A stretch of DNA of 64,000 bases. It comes from Candidatus Moraniibacteriota bacterium. GTDB lineage: Bacteria; Patescibacteriota; Minisyncoccia; Moranbacterales; DUUL01. Positions 10,447-63,334 of the stretch are shown here, in pieces (the first letter of the stretch is position 1; the number at the start of each line of letters is the position of its first letter). The notes under the pieces were generated by a model. It was given only the letters and a program-made list of their open reading frames with translations. It made no database searches and was not told where the DNA came from. The stretch is taken from assembly GCA_034522495.1 (NCBI GenBank), contig JAXHLG010000002.1, positions 1,000,486 through 1,064,485 of the forward strand, written 5' to 3'. The translations under genes were made by a program, and so were the position numbers.

Positions 10447-10470
10447 AAAAAAATTTATTACTGGTTATTG

Positions 10471-10863: not shown

Positions 10864-10889
10864 TTAAAATGTTAAAATGATTATCGGCC

Positions 10890-10918
10890 TTGACAGATAC
10901 TTTCTTTTGTAGAATAAT
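10890..10918 (+). promoter_or_regulatory. Sigma70-like promoter candidate for the orphan gene at 10966
   Basis: TTGACA (10890-10895) is followed by a 17-nt spacer and AATAAT (10913-10918), with an overlapping TGtAGAAT. A strong SD (aaaggagg) lies 7 nt before the ATG at 10966. Confidence 0.5.
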
Positions 10919-10965
10919 TGGGTAAAAGAATTTTTGAAACAAAAATTGCAAAAGGAGGTAACTTC

Positions 10966-11325: not shown

Positions 11326-11341
11326 TTAAGTTCTTCAATAG

Positions 11342-11374
11342 AGGCCGGTCAATGACCGGCCTTAAGCTTTTTTT
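11342..11374 (+). terminator. Rho-independent terminator
   Basis: The 9-bp GC-rich stem aggccggtc-aat-gaccggcct is followed by taagcttttttt. Confidence 0.8.
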
Positions 11375-11478
11375 AGAAACAATTGAACCCGTAATTGAAC
11401 CGCTTGATTTTAAAAATTTCCCGCTGCTTGCCCCTTGCTTCTTGATGCAGCAACACACACTCCCGCCTTGCAGGCCTT

Positions 11479-14400
11479 TCAATCTTCCGCTCCTTTTTTC
11501 CTGAAAACCGTTCCAATAAACCTGTCCACTTCTAAATTGCTGTTCAGCTTCAAATTGTCCGGCTTGGCTTCGATTTCTTCGGGATATTTCCAAAAAAGAT
11601 CAAAGTTGTCCGGCTTTGAAATGGATGAAGAAAATTCAGTCTCGGCTGAGCCGGACTGCTTCTGAGCCAGCAAGGAGTAATAGTCCGTTTTATCCTTGTT
11701 TTTATCCACGTCCACCTTGAAAGGCAATCGGTATTTATAGGTAACTTTGACCTCTTCTTGAGGAGAAACATAGACCCAGTTGCCAAAAACTGTCTTGTTT
11801 TCCGCTCGGTAGATCCTAGTTCCGGTTTCTTGATCGATTTCCATGGATTGCTCCAGTTGCGCCACCTGAGAATCTTTTTGAAATTTAAGCTTCTCATAAT
11901 CCAGGGGAGCGGAATTGAATTCTCTGGTGTGGCCCTGCACATCCAAAAGTTTGCTGCCCTCGGGAACATAAACTCTCATGTAGTTGGCGTTGACTTTATT
12001 GTAAAATTCATACTCGGAGTTGCCGCCGTTGTGTTTTCTGGTGATGGTTACCGTGTCAACAATGGATCCGTCCGGCTTGATTTCAGCATTGTGATCAATT
12101 TTCTGATCTATCACTCCGTCGGTTTTGAATCCGTTGATATTGGAATTAACTACCATCAAATAATCCTTTTTGGTGTCAAGCACTTCCCCGGACCAGCCCA
12201 GCTGGGAAACCAGGTTTTGAATTTCGTGGTTTCTGGAATAAACAAGGATGTGCTTCTGATCCAGCGCTTCGGAAAAAACATTCAAAGTCTCGGCAATGCC
12301 CTCCAAATCCCTTTTGGCAAATACCTTGTCTAGAAGCTTGGGAGCCATATCGGCTATAATTTTTTTAGGCTTGTTCTCTTCTTTGTCATAATCGAATTCC
12401 ACCTTGAACTGGGTTTTATCCACAAAATTTTCCGCCGTGAGAGTGGTATCGTATTCCGGCATCTCTATCGGTCCGGTTATTTCCAAAAGTTTTTTAACCA
12501 CATCCGGAGTAAAAGTTATCACTCCGTCAACCGTGGGGCCTCCGGTTTTCTCGTAGAACCAAGAAATCTTTTCCGCTGAAGTCGGAAAATTGGGAAACCA
12601 GTTGGAGTCGTGAGTGGACCAAGCGGCTGATATTTTTTGAATAGGCTTGGGCGGAATAACATTAACGTCCAGCTGGCCGTCGGGATTGAAAATACCGTCA
12701 ATAAACAGCTCTTCCACGTGGCCTTCATGCACGTCCAAGACTCCGTAACTGCCGATAAAGCCGCCCGTAGCTCTCATCTCTTGGTTGTTTTGAAATAAGA
12801 ATAAGTACTTCCTCGGTCCGTTGTAGCCCAGCAAATCCTTGAAAACAAATTGATTCTTGTTCAATTCTTCAATGTAGGCGATAGCTTGAGGCAGAAATTC
12901 TTTTCCTTTTTTAAATTCGTCTCTGTATCTTTCCGGCACATCCCCGGGGTTCACTTCTTGCAGATTATGATTAGCCTTTTTCAGGTGTTTTCCGGCTTCG
13001 GCCAAGTCTTCATTTATATGGAGAAAAACATCTCCAATGCCTTGCTTGTTCCCTTCTTGCGATTCCAGGGGATTTTCAATTTTGGATATTTTCTCAACCG
13101 TTCCCCCCAGTAAAGAAGCGGCCTCCATAAGTTCTTCCCCAGCATTCATCAGCTTCTTGCCGCTGCCGATCTTGGAAAGGAAAGGAACGTGAGAAAAAGC
13201 CTCCATCATATTGCCCCCCAGCTTATTTATCCTTTGATTGGCTTCTTTTATCTCTTTCTTGGCTTGGTTTAAGTTTAATATGGCTCTGTCGATGTTTTTG
13301 TTTTCAAATTCTTCTTTGGCTTTGGCTATGTGCCGGGACGCTTGCTGTCCTTTTACCTCTACGTCATCTTTTAGCTGAAATCCATAGGAAGCAAAACGGC
13401 CGGAGAGAACAATCAAAAAAATTACCAAACATACGCATCCAAACGAGAAAGCCGGCTTCCAAAAACTTGTTCCGAAAACCCTCCCGGGAGCGGCTGACAA
13501 AGCTTGCCGCATATTTTTCCAAGACGCGGCGACCTGCCGACTCTTCAACTCTTTTTGATTTCTCCGATAAGCTTTTTCCTTCTCCTTTTGCCGCCTGGCT
13601 TCCTCTTTGGCTTCCATCTTCTTGAGTTTCTGCCACTCCTTTTGCTCGGCTTTTCGCTTCTTTTCTTCCTCTTTTTGCCTCTGCAGAGCCAGTTTTTCCT
13701 GCTTCCTCTTTTTTCTTTCCAGCTGCTTCTGTCTTTCTCTTTCTTCTCTTTGGCGCTGTTTTTGAAGCTCTTCTTGCTTTTTTTGGCGCTCTTTCTCCTT
13801 TTCTTGCTCCTGCCTGCGCCTCTGGAGAATCAATTTTTCCTGTTCGCGCTTTTGCTTTTCTTCTTCCTTTTTTCTTTGGATCGCCAGCTCTTCCTGTTCG
13901 CGCTTTTGCTTTTCCCTTTCCTTTTCTCTTTCTTTCAAAAGCCTCCGCCTTTCCATCTCCTTTTGCTCTCGAGCCCTTCTGGCTCTTTCCCATCTCTCTT
14001 CCTCTTCTTTTTCCAGTCGGCGCAATTTCTCTCGATAAAAATGAAGCCTTTCCTCGTTTTTAGCCGCTTGTTTTTGTCCAAAAATATTCAATCCCGGATC
14101 AGTTTGCTTTTGTTCAAACAGGGAAATGATCTCTTTTAAGGATTTCTGCTTGGCGTTTTCTGTGCGTTCAGGGGGAATAATGTGATAAAGAGGCAATTCT
14201 TCCGAAATCTTGCAGCCGAGATAATAATGCCTTGTTTTTTTTATCTCGTTTTTTAAGCTGGCTATTCTTTCCTGTATTTTTTTCTCTTGGCTTTTTCTTT
14301 CAATTTCTCTTAAATTATCTTTCTTTTCAGGCTTGAGGCCTTCGCTTTCTGCCGGTTCTGCCGGACGCGGCCGCCTCTTCGATTCCATTAAACCAGCTTT

Positions 14401-27000: not shown

Positions 27001-27546
27001 CTAACTTATAAAACCCTCTTTTTTTAAATAATCCATAACTTTTAAAGAACACTCCTCAGGCGCAGAATTTTCCGTTAGAATCTCCAGATCCGGATTTTGC
27101 GGAGCGTCGTAGGGATCGGAGATGCCGGTGAAATTTTTGATTTCCCCCGCTCTGGCTCTTTTATACAAGCCTTTCACGTCCCTTTTTTCACAAACCTCCA
27201 AAGGGGTGTTGACAAATATTTCAATGAACCCGGTTACATTTTTTCTCAATTCGTCCCTTTGATTTTTGTAGGGAGAAATGAAGGAGGCAATCACTCCCAC
27301 TCCGTGTTTGGAAAGCAGATTGGAAACAAAGCCAATCCTGCGGATGTTTTCATCCCGATCTTCCTTGGAAAAAGTCAGCCCTTTGGTTAACGACTCCCGG
27401 ACCACGTCCCCGTCCAGTCTTTCAATCCTGTTGCCGTTGGTTTTCAGCTGTTTGTAAACCTCGTCGGCAATAGTGCTTTTCCCCGCCCCGGAAAGGCCGG
27501 TGAACCACAAAACAAACCCTTTCAGATTTTCGTTATATTTATTCAT
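27001..27546 (-). CDS. cysC: Adenylyl-sulfate (APS) kinase
   Basis: The P-loop GLSGAGKSTIA and the segments RLDGDVVRE ... EDRDENIRRIGFV are present. It is 181 aa. Confidence 0.9.
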   Translation of the reverse strand: MNKYNENLKGFVLWFTGLSGAGKSTIADEVYKQLKTNGNRIERLDGDVVRESLTKGLTFSKEDRDENIRRIGFVSNLLSKHGVGVIASFISPYKNQRDELRKNVTGFIEIFVNTPLEVCEKRDVKGLYKRARAGEIKNFTGISDPYDAPQNPDLEILTENSAPEECSLKVMDYLKKEGFIS

Positions 27547-28630
27547 CTTCTACAAATATTTTCTTACGCTTAATTAAAAATTCATAAACCTCCGGCCGTA
27601 AAATATATTCCGGAGGCATTTCTTTTTTGCTCAAATACTCCCTGAGCTTGGTCCCGCTAAAATTTATTCTACTTTTTTCAGCGCTTTCGTCAATAAAACA
27701 ATGATCATCTTTTGCGGAATCAAAAACTACTTCGGGAAATTTCAGTATCTCTATGCCCAATTCCCGCCTATCCAGGGTATCAAAAATTTTCTGCGCGTCA
27801 AACGGTCCGTAAAAATCCCCCACTCCCGCGTGGTCCCGGCCGACAATAAAATGAGTGCAGCCGAAATTTCTTCTGATGATAGCGTGAAAAACCGCTTCTC
27901 GGGGGCCGGCGTAGCGCATTTCCAAGGGAAGCGCCGACAAAAGCGCTTTGCCCGGGGGGAAATTTTTTTTCAACATGACCTTATAGCTTTCAATAATAAT
28001 CTCGTCCAAAAAGTCTCCCGGCTTCTTCCTGCCGATTACCGGATGAACCAGAACGCCGTCGGCAAACTCCAAAGCCTTCCTTTGAAGAAATTCATGCCCT
28101 CGGTGGGGAATGTTGCGCGTCTGAAAAGCGGCTACCGCGCTCCATCCTCTTTTTTTAAAATAACTCCTGGTTTCGTCCGGTTTTTTGAAAGCTTTTCCGC
28201 ATAATTCTCTGCCCAAATCCCGAGTCAATTCCACCTCTCCGCCCAGCAAAAAATTTTTCATGGCATAAACCTTGGCCGCTCCCGGGTGTTCGAGGCTGGA
28301 GGTTTTAAAGACTTGCTTGGCAAAAAAATCTTTATCAAACCGAAAGGCTTCCGGCTTTTTCAAGAATCCCAATTTTTTTCCATCCGGGCCGATCAAGACA
28401 GCCTTTTCTTTTCCGTTAATTTTTTCCGCGGTTTCTTTGTCCACGTCAAGAACAATGGGAATAGACCAAATTTCTCCACTTTTCAACCGCATGTGTTTCA
28501 ACACCGAAACAAAATCGGCTTCCCGGAGAAAGCCTTTGAGCGGGCGATAAGCTCCGCTTTTGATGTTGAGAACATCTTTTGTTCTCTCCAGGTCCAAAAC
28601 TATGGACTCGCAACTTTTTTCTTTTTCCAT
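27539..28630 (-). CDS. sat: Sulfate adenylyltransferase (ATP sulfurylase, homo-oligomeric Sat type)
   Basis: The motifs QTRNIPHRGHEFL and HFIVGRDHAGVG are present. The gene overlaps cysC by 8 nt. Confidence 0.9.
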   Translation of the reverse strand: MEKEKSCESIVLDLERTKDVLNIKSGAYRPLKGFLREADFVSVLKHMRLKSGEIWSIPIVLDVDKETAEKINGKEKAVLIGPDGKKLGFLKKPEAFRFDKDFFAKQVFKTSSLEHPGAAKVYAMKNFLLGGEVELTRDLGRELCGKAFKKPDETRSYFKKRGWSAVAAFQTRNIPHRGHEFLQRKALEFADGVLVHPVIGRKKPGDFLDEIIIESYKVMLKKNFPPGKALLSALPLEMRYAGPREAVFHAIIRRNFGCTHFIVGRDHAGVGDFYGPFDAQKIFDTLDRRELGIEILKFPEVVFDSAKDDHCFIDESAEKSRINFSGTKLREYLSKKEMPPEYILRPEVYEFLIKRKKIFVEDE

Positions 28631-28675
28631 TTTTTATGTTATGGGAATTAAGCAGTTGCATTTTATTAATTCAGG

Positions 28676-28879
28676 AATTACGCGATTGCGCTTCTACAGC
28701 GCCGAGAGCAAAGCAAGGCTTGGTTTTATGCGCACATTCCTTTTCATCTTGTGAAGATACGCTTGAAAGAAAAACAATTAGCTTCTAAAATCTTTTTTCG
28801 AGCGAATGCAAAAACCGAACCTTGCTTTGCTCTCTTTGATATAAATAATTTAGCAAGCAAGAAGCTTAACCGCGTAATT
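28676..28879. repeat. ~204-nt long hairpin element (family F, full copy)
   Basis: The ends aattacgcg and cgcgtaatt pair. A 24-bp inner helix forms between gagagcaaagcaaggcttggtttt and aaaaccgaaccttgctttgctctc. A left-arm homologue lies at 63617-63680. Confidence 0.75.
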
Positions 28880-29015
28880 ACTATAATTATCAGACTAATT
28901 CAATAACCTAAGATTCATAGACCAAGGTTCAGTCCTGGGAATAATTTGTTGGCATTCGGAAAACCCGGTTTTGCTTATTCCTTGTTCCTTGCCGCTTGCT
29001 CCTTGCTACTTGCTC

Positions 29016-29804
29016 CTATTCAAGCTCCCGCAAGACCGATTCATGAAAACGGCCATTGCTGGCAACAATTCCTTCTTTCAAGTAGGGTTCATTTTTGTTG
29101 TATTGAATTTTTCGACCCCTCTTGTCTGTCACTTCCCCGCCGGCCTCTTCCAGAATGATCTCCGGCGCGCATAAATCCCATTCCCCCATCCCGCTGCCGG
29201 TGTTGAGGAAAAGCTCCGCCTCTCCTTTGGCAATAAGGCCAATTTTGATGCCATTGCTGCCGACTTTCTTCATTTTATTGATTCCCAGCTTCTGAGAAAT
29301 TTGCTCATCTTCCGGCTTTAGGTGGTTGCGGCTCACCACCATTCTGGCTTTTTTGGAGTCGTCAATAGAGGTGGTTTCCAGTTTTTCAGATTGATTAGCG
29401 CCGATTTCCAAGAAAGCTCCTTTGCCTTTTTCCGACCAATAAAGCTCGCCGGTTGCCGGCAGATAAACAGCGCCCAGCGCCGGACGGCCGTTTTCGGCCA
29501 ACGCCGCCATAACGGAAAACTCGCCGGTTTCCTGAACAAAATCCATGGTGCCGTCCAAGGGGTCTATGATCCAAACTTTGCCGATTTTAAGCCGGTCAAG
29601 ATCATCTTCGTTTTCTTCGGAAAGTATCGGGTATCCCGCGCCGGCCAAATTTTCGCACAAAATCTTATTGGAAGCCAAATCAGCCTCGGTCAAAGGGCTT
29701 TCGTCTTTCTTGTATTCCACTTTGGCTTCCTTTTTTTTGTAATACCGCAAGGCTGCGTCTCCCGCCTCCTTGACCGCCTTTTTTAGCAAATTTAGGTCGT
29801 TCAT
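29016..29804 (-). CDS. cysQ: 3'(2'),5'-bisphosphate nucleotidase / inositol monophosphatase family
   Basis: The motifs WIIDPLDGT and SEENED are present, with a GSNGIKIGLIAKGEAELF region. I placed the start at ATG 29804, preceded by aaagagg. The track start at 29831 is a TTG. Confidence 0.75.
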   Translation of the reverse strand: MNDLNLLKKAVKEAGDAALRYYKKKEAKVEYKKDESPLTEADLASNKILCENLAGAGYPILSEENEDDLDRLKIGKVWIIDPLDGTMDFVQETGEFSVMAALAENGRPALGAVYLPATGELYWSEKGKGAFLEIGANQSEKLETTSIDDSKKARMVVSRNHLKPEDEQISQKLGINKMKKVGSNGIKIGLIAKGEAELFLNTGSGMGEWDLCAPEIILEEAGGEVTDKRGRKIQYNKNEPYLKEGIVASNGRFHESVLRELE

Positions 29805-30086
29805 ATATAATCGCCTCTTTAATTTCGACAAAATTAATTTGAACTAGAAAAATGAACAAAACACAAATTCCAATGAACAAATAATACACAAAACACATTT
29901 CCAAAAACACAAACACAAGTAATTTTGTGACTAGTGACTAGTGACTAGTCATCGGTCATCGGTCATCAAAACAATTTTCTTAATTTCCTAACAATTCAAC
30001 AATGAAACAATGGAACAATTTCTATAAATCTCAACCGTATTTCAATTTATATCCACCATATATCAACCATATATCTCACTATAAGT

Positions 30087-32455: not shown

Positions 32456-32708
32456 GTGAAGAAATAATGAAATAAAATTTATACAAGCAATGTAGAATAT
32501 ATACTTACCCAAAATACAACTTTTTTCAAACATCAAGAAAATTATGTAGGGTAAAAGTACATAAAAATAAACCAAAAAAATGAAATCGCAAAACAACGCT
32601 TATTTCAATCTTAATGTGAACGGTTTTAAAAGTTTTCATCAAAAGAAAGCTGCTGATTTAAAGCAGTCTTTTTTTATAAAAATTCAAAAAAGAAAGGGGG
32701 TGATAAGA

Positions 32709-33266
32709 ATGAAAAAATACATAGGTTTAGGCGTGTTTGCGTTGGCATTTTCCGTAATGGTGCTTCCGGCTTTTGCTGAAGGACACAGGGGAAACCGCGG
32801 AAACGACGAACTGGAAGTTAAGAACTACAATCGAGCTTACATCACTAACAACGTAGATAGCGAGAGCAACACTGGTTATAACGAGGCTAACCGCAATGCC
32901 GGCATAGGAAGAATAACCACCGGAAACGCTGTTGCTGACTCCCTCTCCAATACCACAGCTAACGAGAATAGAACAGTGATAGAGTGCACTGACTGTTTAA
33001 TGGGTATCGACAAGATGGAAGTCAAAAACTCAAACAGCATTCGCGTAAAGAATGACGTAGAAGCCGATGCCGACACCGGTAACAATGAAGCTAACAGTAA
33101 TAAAAGTGTTACAGTGACTTACAAGAAAAAGTCATGTCGCGGAAATTACCATAGACCCAGCAAAGTGATTGAAACTGAAGGAAGAGGAGTCATTGAGACC
33201 GGAAACGCTCAATCGGTTGCTACCGCCTTTACGACGGTTAACTCAAATATTACCCGTATAAGGTAA
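32709..33266 (+). CDS. Secreted protein with two 'SNTGxN ... TGNA' repeat modules
   Basis: I placed the start at the ATG preceded by aaagggggtg. The signal peptide is MKKYIGLGVFALAFSVMVLPAFA. The modules read NNVDSESNTGYNEANRN..GRITTGNAVADS and NDVEADADTGNNEANSN...VIETGNAQSVAT. Confidence 0.6.
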   Translation: MKKYIGLGVFALAFSVMVLPAFAEGHRGNRGNDELEVKNYNRAYITNNVDSESNTGYNEANRNAGIGRITTGNAVADSLSNTTANENRTVIECTDCLMGIDKMEVKNSNSIRVKNDVEADADTGNNEANSNKSVTVTYKKKSCRGNYHRPSKVIETEGRGVIETGNAQSVATAFTTVNSNITRIR

Positions 33267-33282
33267 TTTTTTTGAGCAATCA

Positions 33283-33311
33283 GGAAACCGGGGGGCTCCC
33301 CCCCGGTTTCC
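33283..33311 (+). terminator. GC hairpin downstream of 32709-33266
   Basis: The hairpin is ggaaaccgggggg-ct-cccccccggtttcc. There is no T-run, so it may be an attenuating or processing hairpin. Confidence 0.4.
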
Positions 33312-33336
33312 CTGCCGAAACTAATTTAACAATAAC

Positions 33337-33891
33337 ATGAAATTTAACATTAAAAAAGCAATAGGATTAAAAATATTAATACTTCTTCTTTTGTGGGGAT
33401 GGCCGATTTTATTTTTTCCCGCCTTGAGCGTTTCCGCTGATTCGGTTTTTATAGAAAACTCCGTTAAGTCTTCTTCCAACACAGGAAATAACTCGACTGA
33501 AGAAACGGGATTTTCCATAAAAACCGGCAAAGCTGACAGCAAAAGCAGCTCTCAAATAGATATCAATAGCAGTTCCGACGCGGAAGTAAAAATCAAAACC
33601 GAATCCAAGGCAAACGAAGAAGAGGCAAGATTGGAGGTAAATGAAAAAATGCAAAATCTCCCCTCCGCGTTCCAAAAAAAGCAAACCCATGAAACCGAGG
33701 GAACCAAAGCTAAAGCGGAGATAACAGTCCAAAAGGAAAGCGGCACCGACTCTGCTGCACCCGAAAGAGAGCGCTTCAAGAAGCAACCGGAGGAGTCAGC
33801 TAACTTGTTCAGTTTTTTAAATATCCTGGGTAAATCCTTCTCTTCTCTGGCAAATAGTATTACATCAAAGATCAGTTTATTTTTTTCTTAA
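33337..33891 (+). CDS. Secreted protein with one SNTGNN/TGKA module and Ser/Glu/Lys-rich tail
   Basis: The signal/TM segment is ILILLLLWGWPILFFPALSVSA. The module reads IENSVKSSSNTGNNSTEETGFSIKTGKADSKSS. Confidence 0.5.
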   Translation: MKFNIKKAIGLKILILLLLWGWPILFFPALSVSADSVFIENSVKSSSNTGNNSTEETGFSIKTGKADSKSSSQIDINSSSDAEVKIKTESKANEEEARLEVNEKMQNLPSAFQKKQTHETEGTKAKAEITVQKESGTDSAAPERERFKKQPEESANLFSFLNILGKSFSSLANSITSKISLFFS

Positions 33892-33992
33892 ATATGGGAG
33901 CTGAGCGATTGAAACGGAAACGCGAATCCGCATAAAACCAAGTTTTGTTTTAATCTTAATACTAAATCACTTAATTCTTCAAAACAATAAAA

Positions 33993-36900
33993 ATGGAAAA
34001 CGCTTCATTCAGAACAATAGCTTTCAAGTTTTTTGGGAAAAAATTTTTTCTAAAATCCTTTTTGGCGTTTTTTGCCATTTTTAATTTAATTGCTTTTCAA
34101 ATAGGCTTCCCCCTTTATGCGTCCTACTCGCTGGCTTCCTCAACTGAAGAAACTGCGCAAGAAAACCAAGAAGAGAAAGAAAAAATCTTGGAAAACAAAA
34201 AGGAAGATAAAGAAAAGAAAGAAAATGAATCAAAAGAGGAGAAAGAGGAAGAAACAACCGACTCCGGCAAAGAGGAGAATTCAAAAAAATCCGGCAACCC
34301 TGAAAAACAAGACAGCTCCACTGAAGAAGCAATAGACGCCGATGAGAAAAACTCCGAAGAACCAGAAAGCGCTTCAGCCGCCGAGCAAGAGCCGCAACCA
34401 ACTCCCGAAGATGATTCTCAAGAAAAAGTTTCCTTAAGGGACTCTTCCGGTGATGAAATTGAAACCCTCCAAGAAGCGGACGAAGATGAAAAAAAGGCTG
34501 ATTCCTGCAATCCCGACGATGAGAAAAAAGATGATAAAGATTGCGGCCAAGATTTAGAGTTAATAAACAAAAACGACGCTGAAGCGCAAAACGAAAGCAG
34601 CGCAACCGCCAACACCGGCAACAACGTTATTGACAACACTGATGATGAAAACGGAGGAGGCAGCAATAATATCGACCCGCCAACGGACATCAAAAATCAA
34701 GAAGGAGAAGTAGAGAATGAAAAAACAGAGGCGGAGAATACAAATAAGTCCGCTCCTGATCAAGAAGATGAAATGGAGAATAAAAATCCGGCAGCAGAAA
34801 GTGAGGATTTAGAGGCTGAAGATGAGAAATTGGAAGCGGGAGATAAGAAGTCGGAGGCGAGAAATGAGAATTTGGATTCAAAGAGCGGAGAGTCGGAGAC
34901 GAGTGGCAAGGATTTGGAATTGAAAGACAAAAAAGATAATGAAGATGCACCAGCCGCCGTAAATCATCAGCCGCCAGGGAATAAAGAGGAAAGCCAGCCG
35001 GATGATGATGAAGATACCAACGAACCTGAAAAACTAGAAGAAGACTCTTCTAACGCAGAAGATAGCCAAGAAATCGAGACCGGCGAAGCCATTGCTCAAT
35101 CGGATATTTTCAATGAGCTGAACGTCAACGTCAACGGAGAAAACTGGGAGGATGTCGTGATAAATTTATACAATAACCACTCCGAGGATATTAATTTGCT
35201 AGAAATTATAGACAAAATTGTAGAAAACGAATACTTATCCAGAGAAGAAGCAAATAAAATAATCGAAAACGAAAACAAAGCGGTTTTGGAAAACAAGGCG
35301 GATGCCGAAGCTAATTCGGGCGAAAACAAAATCATAAACGACGAATCCGGCGAGAATAATTCCTCCATATCAACCGGCAACGCCTCCGCTACTGCCAACA
35401 TAGTCAACCTCGTCAATAAAAACATAGTGGGAAATAATTGGGTTTTTGCAGTGATAAACGTTTTCGGCCAATGGAAAGGCGACTTGGTCGTTCCGGGAAA
35501 AGACCTTTTTAAGTTCCAAGAAATCCTCGCCAACAAAGAAGTGGAAATTGAAAACAGCAATTTCGCCGATATTGAAAATCAAAGCAGCGCCCTCTCTTCC
35601 ACGGGAGGCAACTCCATTGAACAATCAGGCGAGGCGGCAATAAAAACCGGGGAAGCCTACTCTCAGGCGGACGCATCCAATTTGGTCAATACCAACATCT
35701 TGGAAAATGGCTGGTTTCAATTAAATGTCAACAATCTCGGCAGTTGGCTGGGCTCCATCGTTGATTATTACGGCTCGTCAGACAGCAATATAAAACTTGC
35801 CTACAGCTTGAAGGCCGACAAAACGGTGGAAAGCAATTCCAAGCTAAAGGTCATCAATAACAACGAAGCTGACATAAGCAACACGGCTTTAGCTAAAGCC
35901 AAAACCGGTAACAATTCAATCAAAGGAGGCAAAAATTCTGAAATTACAACCGGCAACGCCGAAGCTTATACCAATATCGCCAACTTGGTTAATTTTAACA
36001 TCGTAGGCAATAACTGGGTCTACACTTTAATAAATATTATGGGGAGATGGGAGGGAGATCTGGTATTCGCCTACCCGGATCTGGTTATCTCCATCGATGA
36101 CAACAAAGATAGCGTCGAGCCGGGAGAGTCAGTCGCTTACGAAATTTATTATGCCAATCTAGGAAGGGCCAAAGCTAAAAACGTGGAAATATCCGCTCAA
36201 TTACCAGCAAGCGCCATCACTAGCCAATCCGATAATAAGTACTCTTTTTCCTTGCCGGAGCTGGCTCCGGGGGAGGGGGCGGTGATTGAAATTGCCGGTC
36301 AAGTCAAGACTTCGAAAGAAGAGTTGAACAGTCCCCTACTGGCCGCAGCCGAGATAGCCGCCCAGACTACTGAAAAGCTGCTGAACAATAACAGCGACAC
36401 GGATACGACTGAAATAGTTTATCCCGCCGAAACCGCGGTCGATTCCAATTCCAATGATTCCGCTCTTGCGCCGGAAAATGAAAACAGGGACAATAATAAA
36501 AATATAAACAACAGCGCCGGAGAAAATGAAATAATTTTAATTGATTATTTATCCGAGGAACCCAATAAAGCATTAATAAAAGATCCGGAGACTGACTTGA
36601 AAATAAGCAGAAACAAAGACGCAACAAGCTCTTCCATTTATCACGGAGAAATCATTAGCCATGAAATAATCATTGAAAATGAAGGAGAAGCTCCTGTTTA
36701 TGATATAAAATTAAAAGACAAATTAAATTATTTGACCGGCCAAAAAATTGAGGTGTTGGAATATGAATGGGAGATCGGCGACCTGGACAAAGACCAGGCA
36801 GTATTGGTGGAGTATCAGATTTTGATCAACGAAGCCGCTTCCCCGGGAGAGTATGAATTCGCCGCCAGAGCGAAAGGAGAAGATGCCAAGGGTGAGGAAG

Positions 36901-37355
36901 TGGAGAGCAACAAGACCAAGATGTCTATAAACTTATTACAAGGAAACAATTTGATTCAAACGCAAACTTATATTCCCCCCGAAGAAGATAATCAATTTAT
37001 AAAACCCGTTCCCACAGCTCAAGCGGCCGATAAAACCATCCCCGTTTTGGGAGCCGGCAACTTGAATAAAAACTGCGCAAACCTTCCACTGTGGATCTGG
37101 ATAAGCTCCCTGATCTCTTACGGCCTCGCCGTTAATTGGGCAATATTCCCCGCTTCCGTATCCGGTGCCAGCCGAAAAATTTTTAACACCAGGCTAGCCT
37201 CGGGAACTCTCCTCTTCAGCGCCGCCTTCTTTGTCTTCTGGTATCTATATCAATGCAACAATTCCTGGGTGCCTATAACGGGCATTATAATTTTGATGCT
37301 TCATATCTATTACAAATTCATCGCTTCTAGCACTTTTGAAAGCAAAAGAATATAA
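33993..37355 (+). CDS. 1120-aa surface protein: N-terminal anchor, ~330-aa acidic region, repeated SNTG/TGNA...NW...GxWxGDLV modules, two DUF11/CARDB-like domains, C-terminal triple-TM region
   Basis: Example modules are EANSGENKI...ISTGNASATANIVNLVNKNIVGNNWVFAVINVFGQWKGDLVVP and AKTGNNSI...ITTGNAEAYTNIANLVNFNIVGNNWVYTLINIMGRWEGDLVF. The DUF11-like segment reads DSVEPGESVAYEIYYANLG. Confidence 0.7.
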   Translation: MENASFRTIAFKFFGKKFFLKSFLAFFAIFNLIAFQIGFPLYASYSLASSTEETAQENQEEKEKILENKKEDKEKKENESKEEKEEETTDSGKEENSKKSGNPEKQDSSTEEAIDADEKNSEEPESASAAEQEPQPTPEDDSQEKVSLRDSSGDEIETLQEADEDEKKADSCNPDDEKKDDKDCGQDLELINKNDAEAQNESSATANTGNNVIDNTDDENGGGSNNIDPPTDIKNQEGEVENEKTEAENTNKSAPDQEDEMENKNPAAESEDLEAEDEKLEAGDKKSEARNENLDSKSGESETSGKDLELKDKKDNEDAPAAVNHQPPGNKEESQPDDDEDTNEPEKLEEDSSNAEDSQEIETGEAIAQSDIFNELNVNVNGENWEDVVINLYNNHSEDINLLEIIDKIVENEYLSREEANKIIENENKAVLENKADAEANSGENKIINDESGENNSSISTGNASATANIVNLVNKNIVGNNWVFAVINVFGQWKGDLVVPGKDLFKFQEILANKEVEIENSNFADIENQSSALSSTGGNSIEQSGEAAIKTGEAYSQADASNLVNTNILENGWFQLNVNNLGSWLGSIVDYYGSSDSNIKLAYSLKADKTVESNSKLKVINNNEADISNTALAKAKTGNNSIKGGKNSEITTGNAEAYTNIANLVNFNIVGNNWVYTLINIMGRWEGDLVFAYPDLVISIDDNKDSVEPGESVAYEIYYANLGRAKAKNVEISAQLPASAITSQSDNKYSFSLPELAPGEGAVIEIAGQVKTSKEELNSPLLAAAEIAAQTTEKLLNNNSDTDTTEIVYPAETAVDSNSNDSALAPENENRDNNKNINNSAGENEIILIDYLSEEPNKALIKDPETDLKISRNKDATSSSIYHGEIISHEIIIENEGEAPVYDIKLKDKLNYLTGQKIEVLEYEWEIGDLDKDQAVLVEYQILINEAASPGEYEFAARAKGEDAKGEEVESNKTKMSINLLQGNNLIQTQTYIPPEEDNQFIKPVPTAQAADKTIPVLGAGNLNKNCANLPLWIWISSLISYGLAVNWAIFPASVSGASRKIFNTRLASGTLLFSAAFFVFWYLYQCNNSWVPITGIIILMLHIYYKFIASSTFESKRI

Positions 37356-48850: not shown

Positions 48851-51199
48851 TCAATTTAACACCGCCTTCACCCTCCTCACGCCTGCGCTGGAGCTTTCTT
48901 CTTTGGCGATCTTGAAAGCGCCTTCGATCTCTCCGGTGTTTGTAACGTGCGGACCTCCGCAGATTTCCTTGGAATACCCTTCAATAGTATAGACTTTCAC
49001 CTTCTCTCCATATTTGTCTTCAAAAGTGCCTTGCGCGCCGGCTTCTTTGGCTTCTTCCAGCCCCATTTCTTCCTCTTTGACATCCACCTTGGCCCGGATT
49101 GCATCATTAACATATTCCTCAATTTCCTGAATCTGCTCCGGAGTCAGTTTGTCCGGATGAGTAAAGTCAAACCTGATTCTTTCTCCATTGATATTAGAAC
49201 CGGCTTGATGCACGTGATCGCCCAACACCTTCCTCATTCCCGATAACAACAAATGAGCCGCCGTGTGAAGCTGCTTGGTTTTTTCTTTAGTGTCGGCCAA
49301 GCCTCCTTTGAACATTCCCGCGCTGGCAGTTCTGGAAAGCTCTTGATGGCTTTTCAATTCCTTCTGAAACTCTTTTTCGTCCACCACCATAGTCTTTTCC
49401 TTGGCAAGCTCTCTAACCATTTCAATGGGAAATCCATAGGTCTGGTAAAGATCAAAGGCTTCCTTGCCGGTAATTTCATTACTCCGCTCTAAATGAGGCG
49501 GAAGAGCTTCATCCTCGATTGTCTTGACTTCATCCGGTTTTCCTTCGGCAAATTTCTGCAGGGCTTTGAAGCGATGAGAAATCTTGTTTTTATCTTCCTT
49601 CATTTCGGAAAAAGTATTCTCGTAACCCTCCGGAACGAAAATCGGGTCAAATCCGAATTCGAGTTTAGAGCTACCCAGCCTTTCTTCCGTTATCCTGCCC
49701 CTTACCTCTCCTTCATAGAAAGACAAATTTCTTCCGTCAAAGTGGGCTATCACGCATTTGGCCACAGCCTTTCTGTTTTTCCCTTCAGTCAAATCCAGCA
49801 GTCCCTGGGTGCTCATATAGTCAATAAACCACTTAATCAAAGCCCCCGGAAATCCGCTCCAGGCTTCCAGATGCAAAGAAGTGTCCTCTACAATGATCGG
49901 CTTTTTGAATTTTTTGTAGGCTTCAATTATCTTGTATTCGGCCACTTCTCGAGGCTCGATAGCTTGAACCTCCGGCAAAGATGATTTGACATAATCCAGC
50001 TCCAACCTGTCTCCGGTCAACTGGCGATATTCCTTTATCTTGTTAGGATTGGTGGAAATTAAAGACACCTTTCCTTTCTTGCCGGCAATTTTTTCAAACT
50101 CCTTTAAGCCTTTTTGCAAAGTTTTCCTGAATTTGGACTCTTCTTTTTCAATAACAGCAAGAATTTTGGATCGATTGACTTCCGGATACTGGTCTTTGTA
50201 GATATAGACCGCTTCCGCGGCCGCTTCTTTGGTAAAGTTTTTTTCCAATCCGAGTTTGTAGCCTTCCCTTATAGCCCTTCTTATCAATCTTCTGAGGATA
50301 TAGCCTCTTTCGCTATTGGAAGGCTCTACTCCGTCCGAGGCAATAAACACGGCAGCTTTCAAGTGATCGGCAATAATCCTGAGGGAAGTATAATAATCAT
50401 AATATTTTTTGTCCGACATTTCTTCCAGTTTTTCAATTATCGGCCAGAAAAGCTCGGTTTTGTAATCATCATTGATTCCGTTGATAACCGAAAGCATTCT
50501 CTCCATTCCCATGCCGGTGTCCACGTTCTGGCTGGGCAGCGTTTGGAAGCTGCCGTCGCGTGTTTTTTCATATTCCATAAAAACATTGTTCCAAATTTCC
50601 ACCCACCTGTCGTCGTTGGGATCGAATTTTTTGGGTAAATCTTCTTCTCTGCCACTCCAATAAAAAATCTCCGAATCCGGTCCGCAAGGTCCGGTTTGAC
50701 TGGGAGGCCCCCACCAATTTTCTTCTTTGTCCAGCTTGGCTATGCGGTCTTGGGAGAAACCCAGGTCCCTCCACGCTTGGAAAGACTCTTTGTCAAAAGG
50801 CGCGTCCGAATCTCCCATAAACACGGAAACTGCCATCTTCTCTTTGTCAAGGCCGAGCCATTGGGGGGAAGTGAGAAATTCATAGCTCCACTTAAGCGAT
50901 TCTTCTTTGAAATAATCTCCCAGGGACCAATTGCCCAGCATTTCAAAAAAAGTATGATGGGTGTCATCGCCCACTTCATCAATGTCGATTGTCCTGATGC
51001 ATTTTTGAACGCTGGCCAGTCGTTTTCCTTCAGGATGCTTTTCTCCCATCAAATAAGGAACCAGGGGCTGCATGCCGGAACTGATGAAAAGCGAGGTGGG
51101 ATCATTCTCGGGCGCCAGGGCTGCCGAAGGCAAAACGGCGTGGCCTCTTTCTTGGAAAAAATTCAAAAACTTCCCTCTTAATTCTTTAGCTGTGATCAT
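48851..51199 (-). CDS. alaS: Alanine--tRNA ligase with inserted ITPA/Ham1-type NTP pyrophosphatase domain; no C-Ala domain
   Basis: The catalytic motifs are FISSGMQPLVPY, QKCIRT and FEMLGNWSLGDYF, followed by the tRNA-recognition domain. The insert spans residues ~377-553 (FGFDPIFVPEGYENTFSEM...ISHRFKAL). The editing domain carries HTAAHLL and CGGPHV. Confidence 0.9.
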   Translation of the reverse strand: MITAKELRGKFLNFFQERGHAVLPSAALAPENDPTSLFISSGMQPLVPYLMGEKHPEGKRLASVQKCIRTIDIDEVGDDTHHTFFEMLGNWSLGDYFKEESLKWSYEFLTSPQWLGLDKEKMAVSVFMGDSDAPFDKESFQAWRDLGFSQDRIAKLDKEENWWGPPSQTGPCGPDSEIFYWSGREEDLPKKFDPNDDRWVEIWNNVFMEYEKTRDGSFQTLPSQNVDTGMGMERMLSVINGINDDYKTELFWPIIEKLEEMSDKKYYDYYTSLRIIADHLKAAVFIASDGVEPSNSERGYILRRLIRRAIREGYKLGLEKNFTKEAAAEAVYIYKDQYPEVNRSKILAVIEKEESKFRKTLQKGLKEFEKIAGKKGKVSLISTNPNKIKEYRQLTGDRLELDYVKSSLPEVQAIEPREVAEYKIIEAYKKFKKPIIVEDTSLHLEAWSGFPGALIKWFIDYMSTQGLLDLTEGKNRKAVAKCVIAHFDGRNLSFYEGEVRGRITEERLGSSKLEFGFDPIFVPEGYENTFSEMKEDKNKISHRFKALQKFAEGKPDEVKTIEDEALPPHLERSNEITGKEAFDLYQTYGFPIEMVRELAKEKTMVVDEKEFQKELKSHQELSRTASAGMFKGGLADTKEKTKQLHTAAHLLLSGMRKVLGDHVHQAGSNINGERIRFDFTHPDKLTPEQIQEIEEYVNDAIRAKVDVKEEEMGLEEAKEAGAQGTFEDKYGEKVKVYTIEGYSKEICGGPHVTNTGEIEGAFKIAKEESSSAGVRRVKAVLN

Positions 51200-58901: not shown

Positions 58902-59918
58902 TTATTGGAATAAACTTCCCTGCCTGTCTTCATCCGGCGCTTCCAAGCCGAGATGATCGTAAGCTGACTTGGTGGCTTTCCGGCCTCGAGGGGTACGCTC
59001 CAGCATTCCAATTTGAATCAGATATGGCTCGTATACATCTTCAATGGTCTGGGATTCTTCCGCTACCGCCGCGGCTATGGTTTGCACTCCCACCGGCCCT
59101 CCGTTGAATTTCTCTATCATAACCCTTAAAATTTCCCTGTCTGCCGGCTCTAAGCCAAGCTGATCCACTTCCATCATCCCCAAGGACTTTTCTACAATTT
59201 TCTTGTTTATAATTTCCGATTCGTTTATTTGCGCATAGTCCCGAACTCTTTTGAGAAGGCGATTAGCCACTCGGGGAGTTTTCCGGCTGCAGGCGGCAAC
59301 TGTATCGCACCCTTCTTCGTTTAAGCCGACATTCAATATCTTGGCCGACCTTCTAAGTATTTGGCCGATTTCTTCCTGCTCATAAAAATTTAACCGATAG
59401 ATAGCTCCAAATCTATTCCTCAAGGGAGAAGAAAGCATTCCCAGCCTGGTAGTCGCTCCGATTATGGTAAACTTGGGCAAATCCAGCTGGATAGTTCTGG
59501 CCGACGGTCCCTTGCCCAAAATAATGTCCAGCTTCCCGTCCTCCATGGCCGGATAAAGAACCTCTTCCACAGTTTTGTTCAATCTGTGGATTTCATCCAC
59601 AAACAAAACATCCCCGTCGTTAAGATTGGTTAAAATGGATCCCAAGTCTCCCACTCTTTCAATGGCCGGACCGGACGTGGATTTTATTCCGGCTCCCATC
59701 TCATTGGCAATAATTTGGGCTAAAGTGGTTTTTCCAAGCCCGGGAGGGCCGAAAAGCAGAACGTGATCCACGGACTCGCCTCTTTTTTTGGCTGCTTGAA
59801 TCAGAATATGAAGATTTTTTTTAGTCTGTTTTTGCCCTATATATTCTCCAAAGTTCTGAGGCCTTAAATTTGATTCAAAATTTTCTTCATAAGGCTCTTG
59901 CTGGTTGGACGTAATCAT
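58902..59918 (-). CDS. ruvB: Holliday junction branch migration ATPase RuvB
   Basis: The motifs are [12 protein letters not shown], Walker [10 protein letters not shown] and Walker [11 protein letters not shown] placed the start at ATG 59918. Confidence 0.92.
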
Positions 59919-59976
59919 ATGAATTACTTTTTTAAAACAATTAAACAAAAGCCTAATCAACAATTATCAATAATCC

Positions 59977-60011: not shown

Positions 60012-60288
60012 TTCAGGTTGTTAGGGGTTATTAATAGAAAAAACAACCTTTCTCCCAAAGTTAATTATAACCAAAAAATAGTTTTTTGTCATCAAACTGT
60101 AGACAAAGGGGGTGTTTAGGCTAACTTTTCCCCTAAAGGAGCTTTTCTCAGATAAAAGGGTGTTGCGGTTCAGGCTTCAATATTCCTCGGAACTGCTCTA
60201 AACCCGGGCTTTTATAAGCCTCCGGGTGGTGTCTACAGCTTAATGACAGAAAACAAAGCTCTCATTTTTTCTAAAATGGGAGTTTTTT
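60012..60288 (+). ncRNA. Candidate ~270-nt non-coding transcript (unclassified)
   Basis: It is bounded by the promoter above and by a hairpin plus T-run (gctctcatttt..aaaatgggag-tttttt, 60259-60288). A 9-bp long-range stem ctgtagaca/tgtctacag (about 60100 and 60230) encloses several hairpins. No credible ORF is present. Confidence 0.25.
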
Positions 60289-63200
60289 ATTGTTCTCCCG
60301 CCACTCTATAGACTTCTTCCAGGGTAGTTTCTCCTCTTATGACTCTTAAAATGCCGTCTTGATACATAGTAATCATTCCCTTTTCTATAGCTTTGTTTTC
60401 AATCTCGCTGGTCGTCGGCTTCTCTGTTAAATATTTTTCCATTTCTTCATCCACTTGAAGCATTTCAGCCACCGGCAATCTGCCTTTGTAACCTATGTTG
60501 CCACACTCGGCGCAACCCGTTGCTTCAAATACAAACTCCGGGATTTCTTTTTTTTCATCAACTTTTAATTTATCTGACATGGAATGGAGAGCCTCTTCAA
60601 TAGTTTTTTTCTCCTCTTTGTTTATCTCTCTTTTTTTCTTGCAGCGCGGGCAAAGCTTTCTTACCAGTCTTTGAGCGATAAAACAATTGGTTCCGCTGGA
60701 AATATCCGAAACACCGACTCCCATATCCACCAGCCGTTGAACAGATCCGGCGGCGTTGTTAGTGTGCAGCGTAGAAACCACCAAATGACCTGTCAGCGCA
60801 GCGCGATAGGCAATTTGAGCCGTTTCTTCATCTCTTATTTCACCCACCATCATAATATCAGGGTTCTGACGCAAAAGCGAGCGCATTGCTTTAGCAAAAG
60901 TGTAATCCTCTTCTTTGTTAACCTGCGTTTGAATAACCCCTTCCATTTGATATTCAATCGGATCTTCAACCGTTATTATTTTTACTTCCGGTTCATTCAG
61001 CTTGCTTAGTATGCTGTATAAAGTAGTAGTCTTTCCGCTTCCGGTAGGACCGGTATTGATAATTATGCCGTTAGGACGGGCGATTTCTTCTTTGAGCATC
61101 CTCAGATTAGGCCCGCTAAAGCCGATTTTTTCAATATCCAGCGCTTTGGCTGATTTATCCAGTATTCTCATAACCACAATATCACCGTATCCTCCTAATA
61201 TAATGGAAACTCTGACTGCAATTTTTTTATTTTCCACTTGATCCAATTTTTCATCCATATTTATACCAAAGCGCCCATCCATAGTGCCTCCCTCTCTTTT
61301 GGAAGTTTCAAACCCGGATAAGCTTTTTACTTGGTTTAATAAAGATAAATAATCATCCAATGGCAATTCCGCCACATCTTGAAGCACTCCATCAATTCGA
61401 TATCGGATTTTGAAAGTATCTTCGCCAGGCTCTATGTGAACATCCCCAGCCCTCATCAGCATTCCACCTAAAAGTATTTGTTTGATCATCTTTTTAACCG
61501 GGGTATTCTCCAACATTTTCTGGAAAGATTTTTTCCCCTCCAGCTCTCCTGCAGTTTTTTCATATTCTTCTTTTTCTATATCAACTCCCCTGGAAAGAGA
61601 CCTGAGCATAATTTTTTCGTAAAGATCGACTAAATAATCCCCTTTGCCGGTGACCCTTTGTATCTCTTTCAAGGAAGTTTCCCCTTCTAAAGCCTTTAGA
61701 ATGCCATCCTGAACCATGGTAATCATTCCCTCTTCCAGCGACTGCCTGGTAATCTCCGTTTCAGAAGCCATATGGATAATTTTCTCCTTTATTTTCTCGC
61801 TGAAAGTCAAAATCTCAAAAATTCCCACCCTGCCTTTGTATCCAATGCCTTTGCACTTTGGACAGCCTTTGGCCTTGTAGAAATGGTTTATGTTTTTTGG
61901 AACCTCGACATTCGCCTTGGGGGAAATCACGGAAAGCATTTTTTTAAGAGTTTCAATAGTATTTTGCGCAGGTTCATAATTTTCCTTGCAGTGGGGGCAC
62001 AAACGGCGCACCAGTCTTTGGGCAATCAAAGCGTTAACTGTGCTGGCGATCTCGTTGGAATCCAGTCCCAGATCCATCATTCGAGAAACAACTGCAGCCG
62101 AGCTATTGGAATGAATAGTGGTCAAAACCAAGTGCCCCGTCATGGCCGACTGCATAGCAATACTAGCTGTCTCATCATCCCTTATCTCTCCCACAAGCAA
62201 AATATCCGGATCCTGACGCACAATAGCCCTTAATCCTTTGGCAAAAGTGTAGCCATGTCGATCACTAACCTGAGTCTGCACAATCCCGGGCATCCTATAT
62301 TCCACCGGATCCTCAATAGTTATAATTTTTTTCTCCGCTTCATTTAATTTGTTTATAATCGAATACAGCGTTGTCGTTTTACCGCTTCCGGTGGGGCCCG
62401 AATTGACAATCACGCCTTCCGTTTTGCTAGTTTGACCAGCTAATCGTTCATAAGCCAACCCTCTCAACCCCAAATTTTCCATTTTTAAATTAGAAATATC
62501 TTGATTCAGCAGTCTCAAAACGATACTTTCGCCGTAACTTCCGGGCAAAATGGAAACTCTGCAGTCAATATTGTCCTCTTCGCTTACTTTGACAGAAAAC
62601 CGTCCGTCCTGAGATATATCATTTACATTAAGCACCATGTCGCCCAACAACTTGACTCTCGAGATAATGTTAGGATAAACATTGGCAGTAAAATTGGCAA
62701 CTGTTTGCAAAACACCGTCGATTCTATATCTAAGCCTAATATTTTGCTTTCTCTGCGGTTCAAAATGAATGTCGGAAGCATCCAGCTTAATAGCTCCGGC
62801 AATGATAACGTTTAAAACTTCCGTGGTGGGAACTTCAGTAATTCGCTTTTCCAGCTTCATTAAACTCTCCAGTTCTCCTTTGAATCCTTCGAGTTCTTCT
62901 TCGCTCACGCTTACCGCCAAATTATCAATTCTATCTTTTAAAGAAGTAAAGTTATAATTTTCCCATGCCTGTTTCATGGCGCTCTTGGAAACCACGTGCA
63001 ACTTAACTTTAACACCGTTTTTTTCTTCCAGTTTGTTTATATATTCTTGCAAGTCTTCCCTCTTGGGGTCCACAGCTCCAACTTTAACTTCTCTGCCAAC
63101 TTTTTTTAGGAGTACAATTTCATACTCTTTAGCTTTTTCCTTGGGTATAAAGTTCAAGTTGACTTGATCAATCGGAAATATATTTAAATCCAGATAAGGA

Positions 63201-63334
63201 CAATCGATTTCTTCTGCATACTTTGCGGCGACCTGTTCTTCAGATCTTTTCCTGCGCTTTTTTAAAGCTCTCTCTCTGTCATAATCCCTCGACCAACTGG
63301 ATTGGGTATATCTTTTATCTCCTGTTTTGGGCAT
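60287..63334 (-). CDS. Tandem double GspE/PilB-type secretion ATPase (two complete modules in one 1015-aa polypeptide)
   Basis: An N-terminal T2SSE_N-like domain comes first. Module 1 has Walker A GPTGSGKTTT (res 313-322), ILLVGEIRD, TGHLVLTTIHSN, and CPHC...CPKC. Module 2 has GPTGSGKTTT (res 762-771), IMMVGEIRD, TGHLVVSTLHTN, and CPRC...CAEC. Confidence 0.9.
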   Translation of the reverse strand: MPKTGDKRYTQSSWSRDYDRERALKKRRKRSEEQVAAKYAEEIDCPYLDLNIFPIDQVNLNFIPKEKAKEYEIVLLKKVGREVKVGAVDPKREDLQEYINKLEEKNGVKVKLHVVSKSAMKQAWENYNFTSLKDRIDNLAVSVSEEELEGFKGELESLMKLEKRITEVPTTEVLNVIIAGAIKLDASDIHFEPQRKQNIRLRYRIDGVLQTVANFTANVYPNIISRVKLLGDMVLNVNDISQDGRFSVKVSEEDNIDCRVSILPGSYGESIVLRLLNQDISNLKMENLGLRGLAYERLAGQTSKTEGVIVNSGPTGSGKTTTLYSIINKLNEAEKKIITIEDPVEYRMPGIVQTQVSDRHGYTFAKGLRAIVRQDPDILLVGEIRDDETASIAMQSAMTGHLVLTTIHSNSSAAVVSRMMDLGLDSNEIASTVNALIAQRLVRRLCPHCKENYEPAQNTIETLKKMLSVISPKANVEVPKNINHFYKAKGCPKCKGIGYKGRVGIFEILTFSEKIKEKIIHMASETEITRQSLEEGMITMVQDGILKALEGETSLKEIQRVTGKGDYLVDLYEKIMLRSLSRGVDIEKEEYEKTAGELEGKKSFQKMLENTPVKKMIKQILLGGMLMRAGDVHIEPGEDTFKIRYRIDGVLQDVAELPLDDYLSLLNQVKSLSGFETSKREGGTMDGRFGINMDEKLDQVENKKIAVRVSIILGGYGDIVVMRILDKSAKALDIEKIGFSGPNLRMLKEEIARPNGIIINTGPTGSGKTTTLYSILSKLNEPEVKIITVEDPIEYQMEGVIQTQVNKEEDYTFAKAMRSLLRQNPDIMMVGEIRDEETAQIAYRAALTGHLVVSTLHTNNAAGSVQRLVDMGVGVSDISSGTNCFIAQRLVRKLCPRCKKKREINKEEKKTIEEALHSMSDKLKVDEKKEIPEFVFEATGCAECGNIGYKGRLPVAEMLQVDEEMEKYLTEKPTTSEIENKAIEKGMITMYQDGILRVIRGETTLEEVYRVAGEQ

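Follow-up and report, generated by a model that had tools for sequence, protein, structure and literature searches.

Domain architecture of the tandem ATPase

The window analysed here is a stretch of 64,000 nucleotides (64 kb) from a Candidatus Moraniibacteriota genome (contig JAXHLG010000002.1 of assembly GCA_034522495.1). Near its end it carries a single uninterrupted open reading frame (ORF) of 1015 amino acids plus a stop codon, located on the minus strand at positions 60287–63334 and with zero internal stops. The encoded protein is a tandem PilB/GspE-class type IV filament ATPase in which one N1 (T2SSE_N) domain is followed by two complete ATPase modules, M1 and M2. This identification draws on Pfam and NCBIfam profiles, on alignment of the sequence with itself and on more than 260 full-length homologues. 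It agrees with an earlier note made from the sequence letters alone, which read two full secretion-ATPase modules fused in one polypeptide behind a single T2SSE_N-like domain and expected a domain scan to give two T2SSE matches. The Pfam scan indeed matches T2SSE (PF00437) in two stretches, for 733 bits in all, and a hidden Markov model (HMM) built from the two halves places the module envelopes at residues 165–565 and 608–1015. Aligned to each other, the two halves are 43% identical over 420 residues (E = 2e-124).

The chain starts with a basic and poorly conserved tail (residues 1–43, positions 63206–63334, minus strand as for all features of this gene; conservation 0.30), for which AlphaFold2 (AF2) gives a low predicted local distance difference test (pLDDT) score: below 50 for residues 1–14, with 10-residue block means of 35, 54 and 54 for residues 1–30. 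Comparing this tail with the 24-residue MshEN motif for c-di-GMP binding by eye only, with no scan, we saw no RLGxx-type motif; a partial match was seen, again by eye, in the operon-encoded PilB of a related locus (L090, see below). The N1 domain (N1D), of T2SSE_N/MshEN fold and present once per chain, covers residues 44–127 (positions 62954–63205; Pfam PF05157, 36.5 bits against a cut-off of 23.1); in this class of ATPases it serves to dock the motor to PilM or GspL. It is connected to the first module by a helical linker (residues 128–164, positions 62843–62953) in which AF2 places helices at residues 132–142, 145–159 and 161–167.

M1 (positions 61640–62842) consists of an N2 domain (N2D, residues 165–290) and a C-terminal domain (CTD, residues 291–565), as delimited by Pfam, the module HMM and the motifs. 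M2 (positions 60290–61513) repeats this arrangement with an N2D at residues 608–740 and a CTD at residues 741–1015, recognized by self-alignment, HMM and motifs, and has no N1D of its own. Every motif that the earlier note had listed could be located in both modules. In M1, the Walker A sequence GPTGSGKT spans residues 313–320, the Asp box EDPxE residues 341–345, Walker B ILLVGEIRD residues 378–386 (with Glu383) and the His box residues 399–410; in M2 the corresponding elements are GPTGSGKT at 762–769, EDPxE at 790–794, IMMVGEIRD at 827–835 (with Glu832) and the His box at 848–859. The tetracysteine Zn motif is made up of CxxC pairs starting at residues 446 and 491 in M1 (Cys446, Cys449, Cys491 and Cys494) and at 895 and 941 in M2 (Cys895, Cys898, Cys941 and Cys944).

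Between the modules lies a stretch of 42 residues (566–607, positions 61514–61639) that carries a family-conserved helix with the consensus YLxxLYEKIxxQxLSRG in an alignment of 68 sequences (A1). Tyr572, Leu568, Leu571, Glu573 and Ile575 are near-invariant in this alignment. In the full-length AF2 model (pLDDT 83), helix 566–580 is followed by a strand at 583–586 and by helices 588–597 and 601–610. The inter-module linker is thereby predicted to be structured and not a loose tether.

A conserved protein family

When 5.8 billion clustered proteins were searched for homologues, at least 119 clusters of about 1010–1100 amino acids were recovered in which the whole query is covered at 53–70% identity, some of them on contigs of 0.5–1.1 Mb. 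A second search added about 119 more, many of them labelled Candidatus Moranbacteria, Moraniibacteriota or Parcubacteria, with GenBank entries of the GW2011 groundwater genomes among them. Altogether 267 two-module homologues, mostly of Candidatus Moranbacteria or Parcubacteria, were gathered from NCBI, JGI, ENA and Logan assemblies, some of them on contigs of 0.6–1.27 Mb. Their lengths, which the earlier note had suggested surveying, run from 875 to 1111 amino acids with a median of 1012. The same note had raised a hidden stop, a frameshift or an assembly error as what could undo its reading, and the presence of the same continuous architecture in 267 proteins excludes this.

We therefore reject an artefact, be it a missed stop or frameshift that joined two neighbouring ordinary genes or a duplication introduced by mis-assembly, and consider it scarcely credible: the same continuous layout recurs in 267 proteins that stem from independent assemblies and sources, the inter-module linker is conserved and amino-acid identity between the two modules is only 43%. 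The best in-register repeat that the two halves share in their DNA is 71 nucleotides long and only 75% identical, none exceeding that identity, so neither a recent duplication nor a collapsed repeat is present.

Although rare overall, the tandem architecture is well established within one part of the Patescibacteria. Of the 15,289 strong T2SSE representatives in a library clustered at 50% identity, only about 14 have the two-module form. A scan of species-representative genomes gave, among the matches listed, a single tandem locus (L006, from Ca. Moraniibacteriota), the remaining listed matches being mostly ordinary pilB or pilB–pilT loci. This distribution agrees with a Moranbacteria-type origin of the window, the gene content of which is in keeping with a small genome of the candidate phyla radiation (CPR). 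The tandem sequences have been public for years under the plain names 'PilB' or 'GspE family', and full-text literature searches turned up no paper on a tandem PilB/GspE ATPase.

Constraint on the two modules and differences between them

The earlier note judged both modules to be catalytically competent, and the family bears this out. In a set of 119 homologues, M1 and M2 alike have catalytic motifs that are invariant or nearly so; taken over 119–238 homologues, this applies to the Walker A lysine, the Walker B glutamate, the Asp and His boxes and the arginine-bearing N2 motifs of both modules. In alignment A1 none of the eight cysteines varies, nor does the Walker A lysine or the Walker B glutamate of either module, while in the wider family some M2 modules retain just one CxxC. 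Both modules are under purifying selection, with every catalytic motif kept. M1 is slightly the more conserved of the two, with a mean identity of 64.5% within M1 modules versus 60.1% within M2 modules.

Among the 238 proteins of the main family, M1 and M2 have the same residue in 90 module columns that are conserved to at least 90%, and fixed differences occur in only four columns: Ser187/Gly630, Val372/Leu821, Asp375/Asn824 and Leu380/Met829 (M1/M2). M2 is the module that departs from the consensus of single-module proteins at Ser187/Gly630 (Ser in 92%) and Asp375/Asn824 (Asp in 95%), and M1 is the one that departs at Val372/Leu821 (Leu in 79%) and Leu380/Met829 (Met in 60%). The Asp375/Asn824 pair is part of an RQ[D/N]PD motif just before Walker B. 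In M2 this segment (residues 822–826, positions 60857–60871) and its homologous sites almost always read RQNPD or RQNPN, compared with RQDPD in M1 and in single-module PilBs. The same pattern is also seen in M2 of three apparently independent tandems (P0131, P0132 and P0139), a recurrence that could reflect convergence or gene conversion.

A neighbour-joining tree of 226 modules was calculated with 100 bootstrap replicates and with no PilT, ComGA or labelled GspE outgroups. In this tree the M1 and M2 modules of the main family form separate clades, with bootstrap values of 84% and 94%, respectively, and they never mix in any of the 100 replicates. Together with the four fixed differences, this argues that M1 and M2 are non-equivalent. 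They are old paralogues, about 44–48% identical to each other. A group uniting M1 and M2 of the main family with at most 12 other sequences appeared in only 2% of the bootstraps.

In three further tandems, M1 and M2 are sisters of each other (P0131, 95%; P0132, 100%; P0139, 71%), which points to independent tandem origins. Judging from this tree, there were probably at least two or three independent fusion events, and these separate duplications show that the fused state has repeatedly been viable. P0139 (1047 amino acids) has lost the Walker A lysine of its M1 (GPTGSGTTTL) and has degraded Asp and His boxes there, with M2 intact; by analogy, it seems to resemble an α/β pair of active and inactive subunits. 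A longer form exists as well. P0003 has 1460 amino acids and three complete modules (residues 164–565, 608–1013 and 1057–1459), encoded at positions 10001–14383 of locus L003 on a 77 kb contig, and contains a second copy of the conserved inter-module linker. Its M2 and M3 are only 58% identical and therefore do not stem from an assembly duplicate.

Both modules resemble PilB and GspE

The combination of an N2D with a RecA-like CTD bearing Walker A, Asp box, Walker B and His box, by which the PilB/GspE class is recognized, is found twice in the protein. The protein differs from what is customary in this class in having two modules per chain instead of one and in being encoded outside a pil operon with pilC and pilM/N/O. 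Scored separately, M1 obtains 473 bits against PilB, 460 against GspE, 251 against ComGA and 176 against PilT; for M2 these values are 420, 432, 218 and 159 bits. The corresponding cut-offs are 675.65 (PilB, TIGR02538), 630.25 (GspE, TIGR02533), 300 (ComGA, NF041000) and 319.1 (PilT, TIGR01420). Both modules therefore remain below the ComGA and PilT cut-offs. The Zn cysteines and the N1D likewise set the protein apart from PilT and PilU, and PilT-type ATPases are not known to carry the tetracysteine motif. A motif search of the 1015 residues found an AIRNLIRE-like motif in neither module. By profile and motif, both modules are of PilB/GspE class and neither is of PilT class, and a fusion of PilB with PilT was rejected on the same grounds.

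The whole protein scores 880 bits against both TIGR02538 and TIGR02533 and passes their cut-offs only because the two module scores add up, each module alone being below both. This has a consequence for annotation, as summed two-module scores carry such proteins over equivalog thresholds and lead pipelines to name them plain PilB or GspE.

By sequence, the nearest solved structures are those of PilB from Geobacter and Myxococcus and of GspE from Vibrio, PilB being the best PDB match (E about 1e-102 for M1). With type IVa PilB (Geobacter metallireducens, PDB entries 5TSG, 5TSH and 6OLJ; Thermus PilF core, PDB entries 5IT5 and 5OIU) the tandem protein shares the order of N1D followed by N2D and CTD, the catalytic motifs and the tetracysteine site. 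It is unlike PilB in combining two N2D–CTD modules with one N1D per chain, in the location of its gene outside the pil operon and in that each module falls below the NCBIfam PilB cut-off. The fold and motifs are also those of GspE/EpsE (PDB entries 1P9R, 4KSR and 4PHT), to which M2 is marginally closer than to PilB; however, no type II secretion system (T2SS) genes are nearby, Patescibacteria have neither an outer membrane nor a secretin (Meheust 2019, PMC6744442) and the module scores are under the GspE cut-off. Foldseek aligned the AF2 model to PilB/PilF cores with a template modelling (TM) score of 0.91–0.92 (target-normalized) over about 400 columns, the module that aligned not being stated in the output. 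No solved chain spans more than one module, the query-normalized TM score being at most 0.36.

Genomic context

The module HMM has the tandem ORF as its sole match in the 64 kb window. Pfam scans of the approximately 40 other ORFs gave no T2SSF, PilM, PilN or second T2SSE, and a six-frame search for prepilin motifs was negative; no pilC, pilin or prepilin peptidase gene was found in the window, as the earlier note had already remarked of pilC, pilM and pilin genes. In the related loci L001–L006, L087 and L092, pilC and pilM/N/O are absent within 10 kb of the tandem gene.

Directly downstream of the tandem gene lies ruvB (positions 58902–59963, minus strand; the true start is probably Met16 of the ORF). 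The same neighbour is found, at 51–70% identity, in nine related loci (L001, L002, L005, L006, L086, L087, L088, L091 and L092). Since a promoter-like site (60092–60064, minus strand) is present between the two genes, this arrangement does not imply co-transcription. In several related loci a 379-residue DHH-family gene is located immediately upstream of the tandem gene, but it has only a weak NrnA-like match and offers no functional clue. In some loci ruvC, polA and fpg are close by, giving a steady linkage with recombination and repair genes.

An orphan pilC (406–407 amino acids) is present 5–6 kb from the tandem gene in three Moranbacteria loci, after nusA–tig–clpP and before pnp (L086, 3511–4731; L088, 10001–11221; L091, 10001–11224). 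It is 58–62% identical to the pilC that stands beside a single-module pilB in the full pil operons of L089 and L090, and the orphan and operon genes may be two PilC paralogues or the remains of a broken-up operon. In the L090 operon, hisKA and a response-regulator gene (RR) are followed by a single-module pilB (582 amino acids), pilC, three ORFs, pilM and pilN; L089 holds the same operon type. L090 is situated on contig JBFOMZ010000137.1 (GCA_040961635.1), about 100 kb from a tandem gene (P0289, in L092). As a tandem gene and a canonical single-module pilB share one contig, the tandem protein is an extra motor in that lineage: in at least one related genome it is an additional, accessory motor of the assembly type and not the only PilB. 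In that genome, the core of the operon PilB (L090) shares about 48% identity with each of the two modules, M1 and M2, of the tandem protein.

Within 346 kb sampled from tandem-bearing lineages (a sample of loci, not whole genomes) no PilT-like ORF was found, and in the two pil operons of this sample pilB is followed directly by pilC. In many other Patescibacteria loci, among the matches listed, pilT comes right after pilB.

Proposed assembly and alternatives

We propose that three tandem chains form one six-module ring, an arrangement to which we assign a probability of roughly 50%. In such a pseudo-hexamer M1 and M2 would alternate, giving a footprint equal to that of an ordinary PilB hexamer, but with three N1Ds only and at most threefold symmetry. 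The observed module numbers, two in the common form and three in P0003, both divide six and so fit a six-module ring. A second argument comes from the platform protein. According to a review, PilC/PulF is proposed to be a trimer in which each monomer's two cytoplasmic domains meet six ATPase protomers (PMC11656802, citing Pelicic 2023 and Guilvout 2024). A trimeric platform with two cytoplasmic domains per subunit fits a trimer of tandem chains, which could pair with it one-to-one. Each module would then face a different platform partner, which would explain the module-specific fixed residues; the four M1/M2 differences would reflect two different sets of neighbour and platform contacts. ATP hydrolysis at both types of site would drive the platform to polymerize pilins.

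Rings with six sites built from fewer multi-module chains, or with alternating non-equivalent sites, have precedents in engineered single-chain dimers, trimers and hexamers of ClpX, in the natural tandem proteins KaiC and p97 and in the α3β3 arrangement of F1; unlike the protein described here, these belong to other ATPase families and none is of PilB/GspE type. One and the same filament system may use more than one ATPase of the PilB family, as with PilB and TfpB in Acinetobacter baylyi or PilT and PilU, and whether paralogous motor ATPases form hetero-oligomers or discrete hexamers has been raised as a question (PMC11656802). In contrast to these pairs, the tandem modules are covalently joined, which forces a 1:1 ratio, and they coexist with a third, canonical PilB. 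The filament that is powered could be the pilus of the operon PilB, with the tandem protein acting as a second extension motor like PilB/TfpB in Acinetobacter, or a separate one that uses the orphan PilC about 6 kb away in some relatives.

Several observations weigh against the trimeric ring. Apart from the orphan pilC several kilobases away, the tandem gene has no pil neighbour either in the window or in 12 related loci, so the link to a pilus machine is by homology only. A homologue search with P0003 gave no second three-module protein, leaving it a singleton. The predicted TM score (pTM) of the full-chain AF2 model is 0.58, and for the fragment from CTD1 through the linker to N2D2 it is 0.59, with discordant models and no confident packing of N2D2 on CTD1, a low pTM saying nothing either way. 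Coevolution by mutual information with average product correction (MI-APC) of heterotypic versus homotypic N2D–CTD pairs had no power (effective number of sequences, Meff, 85; r = 0.015 for the homotypic positive control).

The most serious competitor is a stacked double ring, in which the M1 modules of six chains form a canonical ring docked through six N1Ds, with a second ring, made up of their M2 modules, lying beneath it. As far as the sequence goes, this would be allowed equally well as the trimer. M2 lacks an N1D, as expected of a ring that does not touch PilM, and the conserved, structured 42-residue linker connects the C-terminal end of CTD1 with the N-terminal end of N2D2; the absence of confident CTD1–N2D2 packing in the AF2 models fits as well, and the three modules of P0003 could equally make a triple stack. 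KaiC and p97 provide analogues of stacked rings. The C-terminal fusions of GspE with Hcp1 (PDB entries 4KSR and 4KSS), which we take to show that the C-termini of a ring lie on one side, also count in its favour. Within the ATPase family the precedent is the stacking of separate PilT and PilU rings, seen by electron cryo-tomography (cryo-ET) as a double ring at the Vibrio cholerae competence pilus machine's base (bioRxiv 10.1101/2025.10.14.680967). Nevertheless, a second ring of extension-type ATPases would have no platform to act on, and the same 90 columns are conserved in both modules with relaxed constraint in neither. We regard this arrangement as possible but clearly less probable than the trimer of tandem chains.

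The fixed departures Gly630 for Ser and Asn824 for Asp in the RQDPD motif of M2 could also be taken to mean that one module is catalytic and that the other, mainly regulatory or structural, binds nucleotide with little hydrolysis, in an asymmetric ring comparable to the α and β subunits of F1-ATPase. The recurrence of RQNPD/RQNPN-type changes in M2 of independently derived tandems and the degraded M1 of P0139 are in line with this idea. It is unlikely for the main family, since the window protein and its 238 main-family relatives have kept Walker A Lys, Walker B Glu and the Asp and His boxes intact in each module. Less likely still is the division of labour put forward in the earlier note, with one module specialized for extension and the other for retraction. 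Bifunctional single ATPases such as CpaF are known (PMC11656802), and the missing PilT in the sampled tandem-bearing lineages, including their two pilB–pilC operons, set beside the pilT that accompanies pilB in many other listed Patescibacteria loci, would leave room for a motor that does both. This absence rests on sampled loci and not on whole genomes, however, and with both modules scoring as PilB/GspE class (420–473 bits, as opposed to 159–176 for PilT), each with its Zn-binding cysteines and neither with AIRNLIRE, the sequence gives no support for such a split.

A more elaborate version of the trimeric ring can be envisaged, although we consider it rather unlikely, only somewhat behind the stacked arrangement. 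In this version the alternating M1/M2 ring would be obligately threefold, each chain would sit on one subunit of a trimeric PilC-type platform with M1 and M2 on different cytoplasmic domains, and the protein would be a second, dedicated motor, separate from the canonical PilB, that might power DNA uptake or retraction where no PilT is seen. The linkage to ruvB would then be a functional tie to the processing of incoming DNA.

Other genes of the window

Three further features of the window deserve mention. The alanyl-tRNA synthetase ORF (782 amino acids, positions 48851–51199, minus strand) has an unusual insertion, a Ham1-family (ITPase/XTPase) domain at residues 380–552, between the class II catalytic core (residues 6–377) and the tRNA_SAD domain (residues 734–777). 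At positions 27001–29831 (minus strand), genes for adenosine 5′-phosphosulfate (APS) kinase, ATP sulfurylase and an inositol-monophosphatase/CysQ-like protein occur together as a set for the synthesis of 3′-phosphoadenosine 5′-phosphosulfate (PAPS). They are close to glycosyltransferases and large DUF4012 proteins, in a small CPR-type genome, and may be related to sulfated surface glycans. Finally, positions 32580–37355 (plus strand) encode two small proteins (228 and 184 amino acids) with signal-peptide-like N-termini, TGNN/NTGxN repeats and no Pfam match, followed by a 1120-residue DUF11 protein; these genes may form a surface-structure cluster.

Implications for type IV filament motors

PilB-family motors are studied as homohexamers, and the division of labour among their six sites is still debated. 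Points of discussion are C2 versus C3 conformational cycles, the coupling of the ring to a possibly trimeric PilC and the mixing of paralogous ATPases in one ring. A natural and conserved covalent dimer of diverged but intact modules fixes the stoichiometry and the order of neighbours, so that site-specific mutants, in M1 only or in M2 only, become possible without engineering and the debated points are opened to direct tests with recombinant protein. Site asymmetry, ring symmetry and platform coupling in type IV filament motors could thus be dissected with the tandem protein as a natural construct. The repeated appearance of the fusion, with probably at least two or three origins, a three-module form and the loss of a Walker A lysine in one lineage, may represent an evolutionary series leading from symmetric to asymmetric rings. 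For the biology of the CPR, the tandem ATPase would be a previously unrecognized second motor for the pilus and DNA-uptake apparatus on which these episymbionts are thought to depend.

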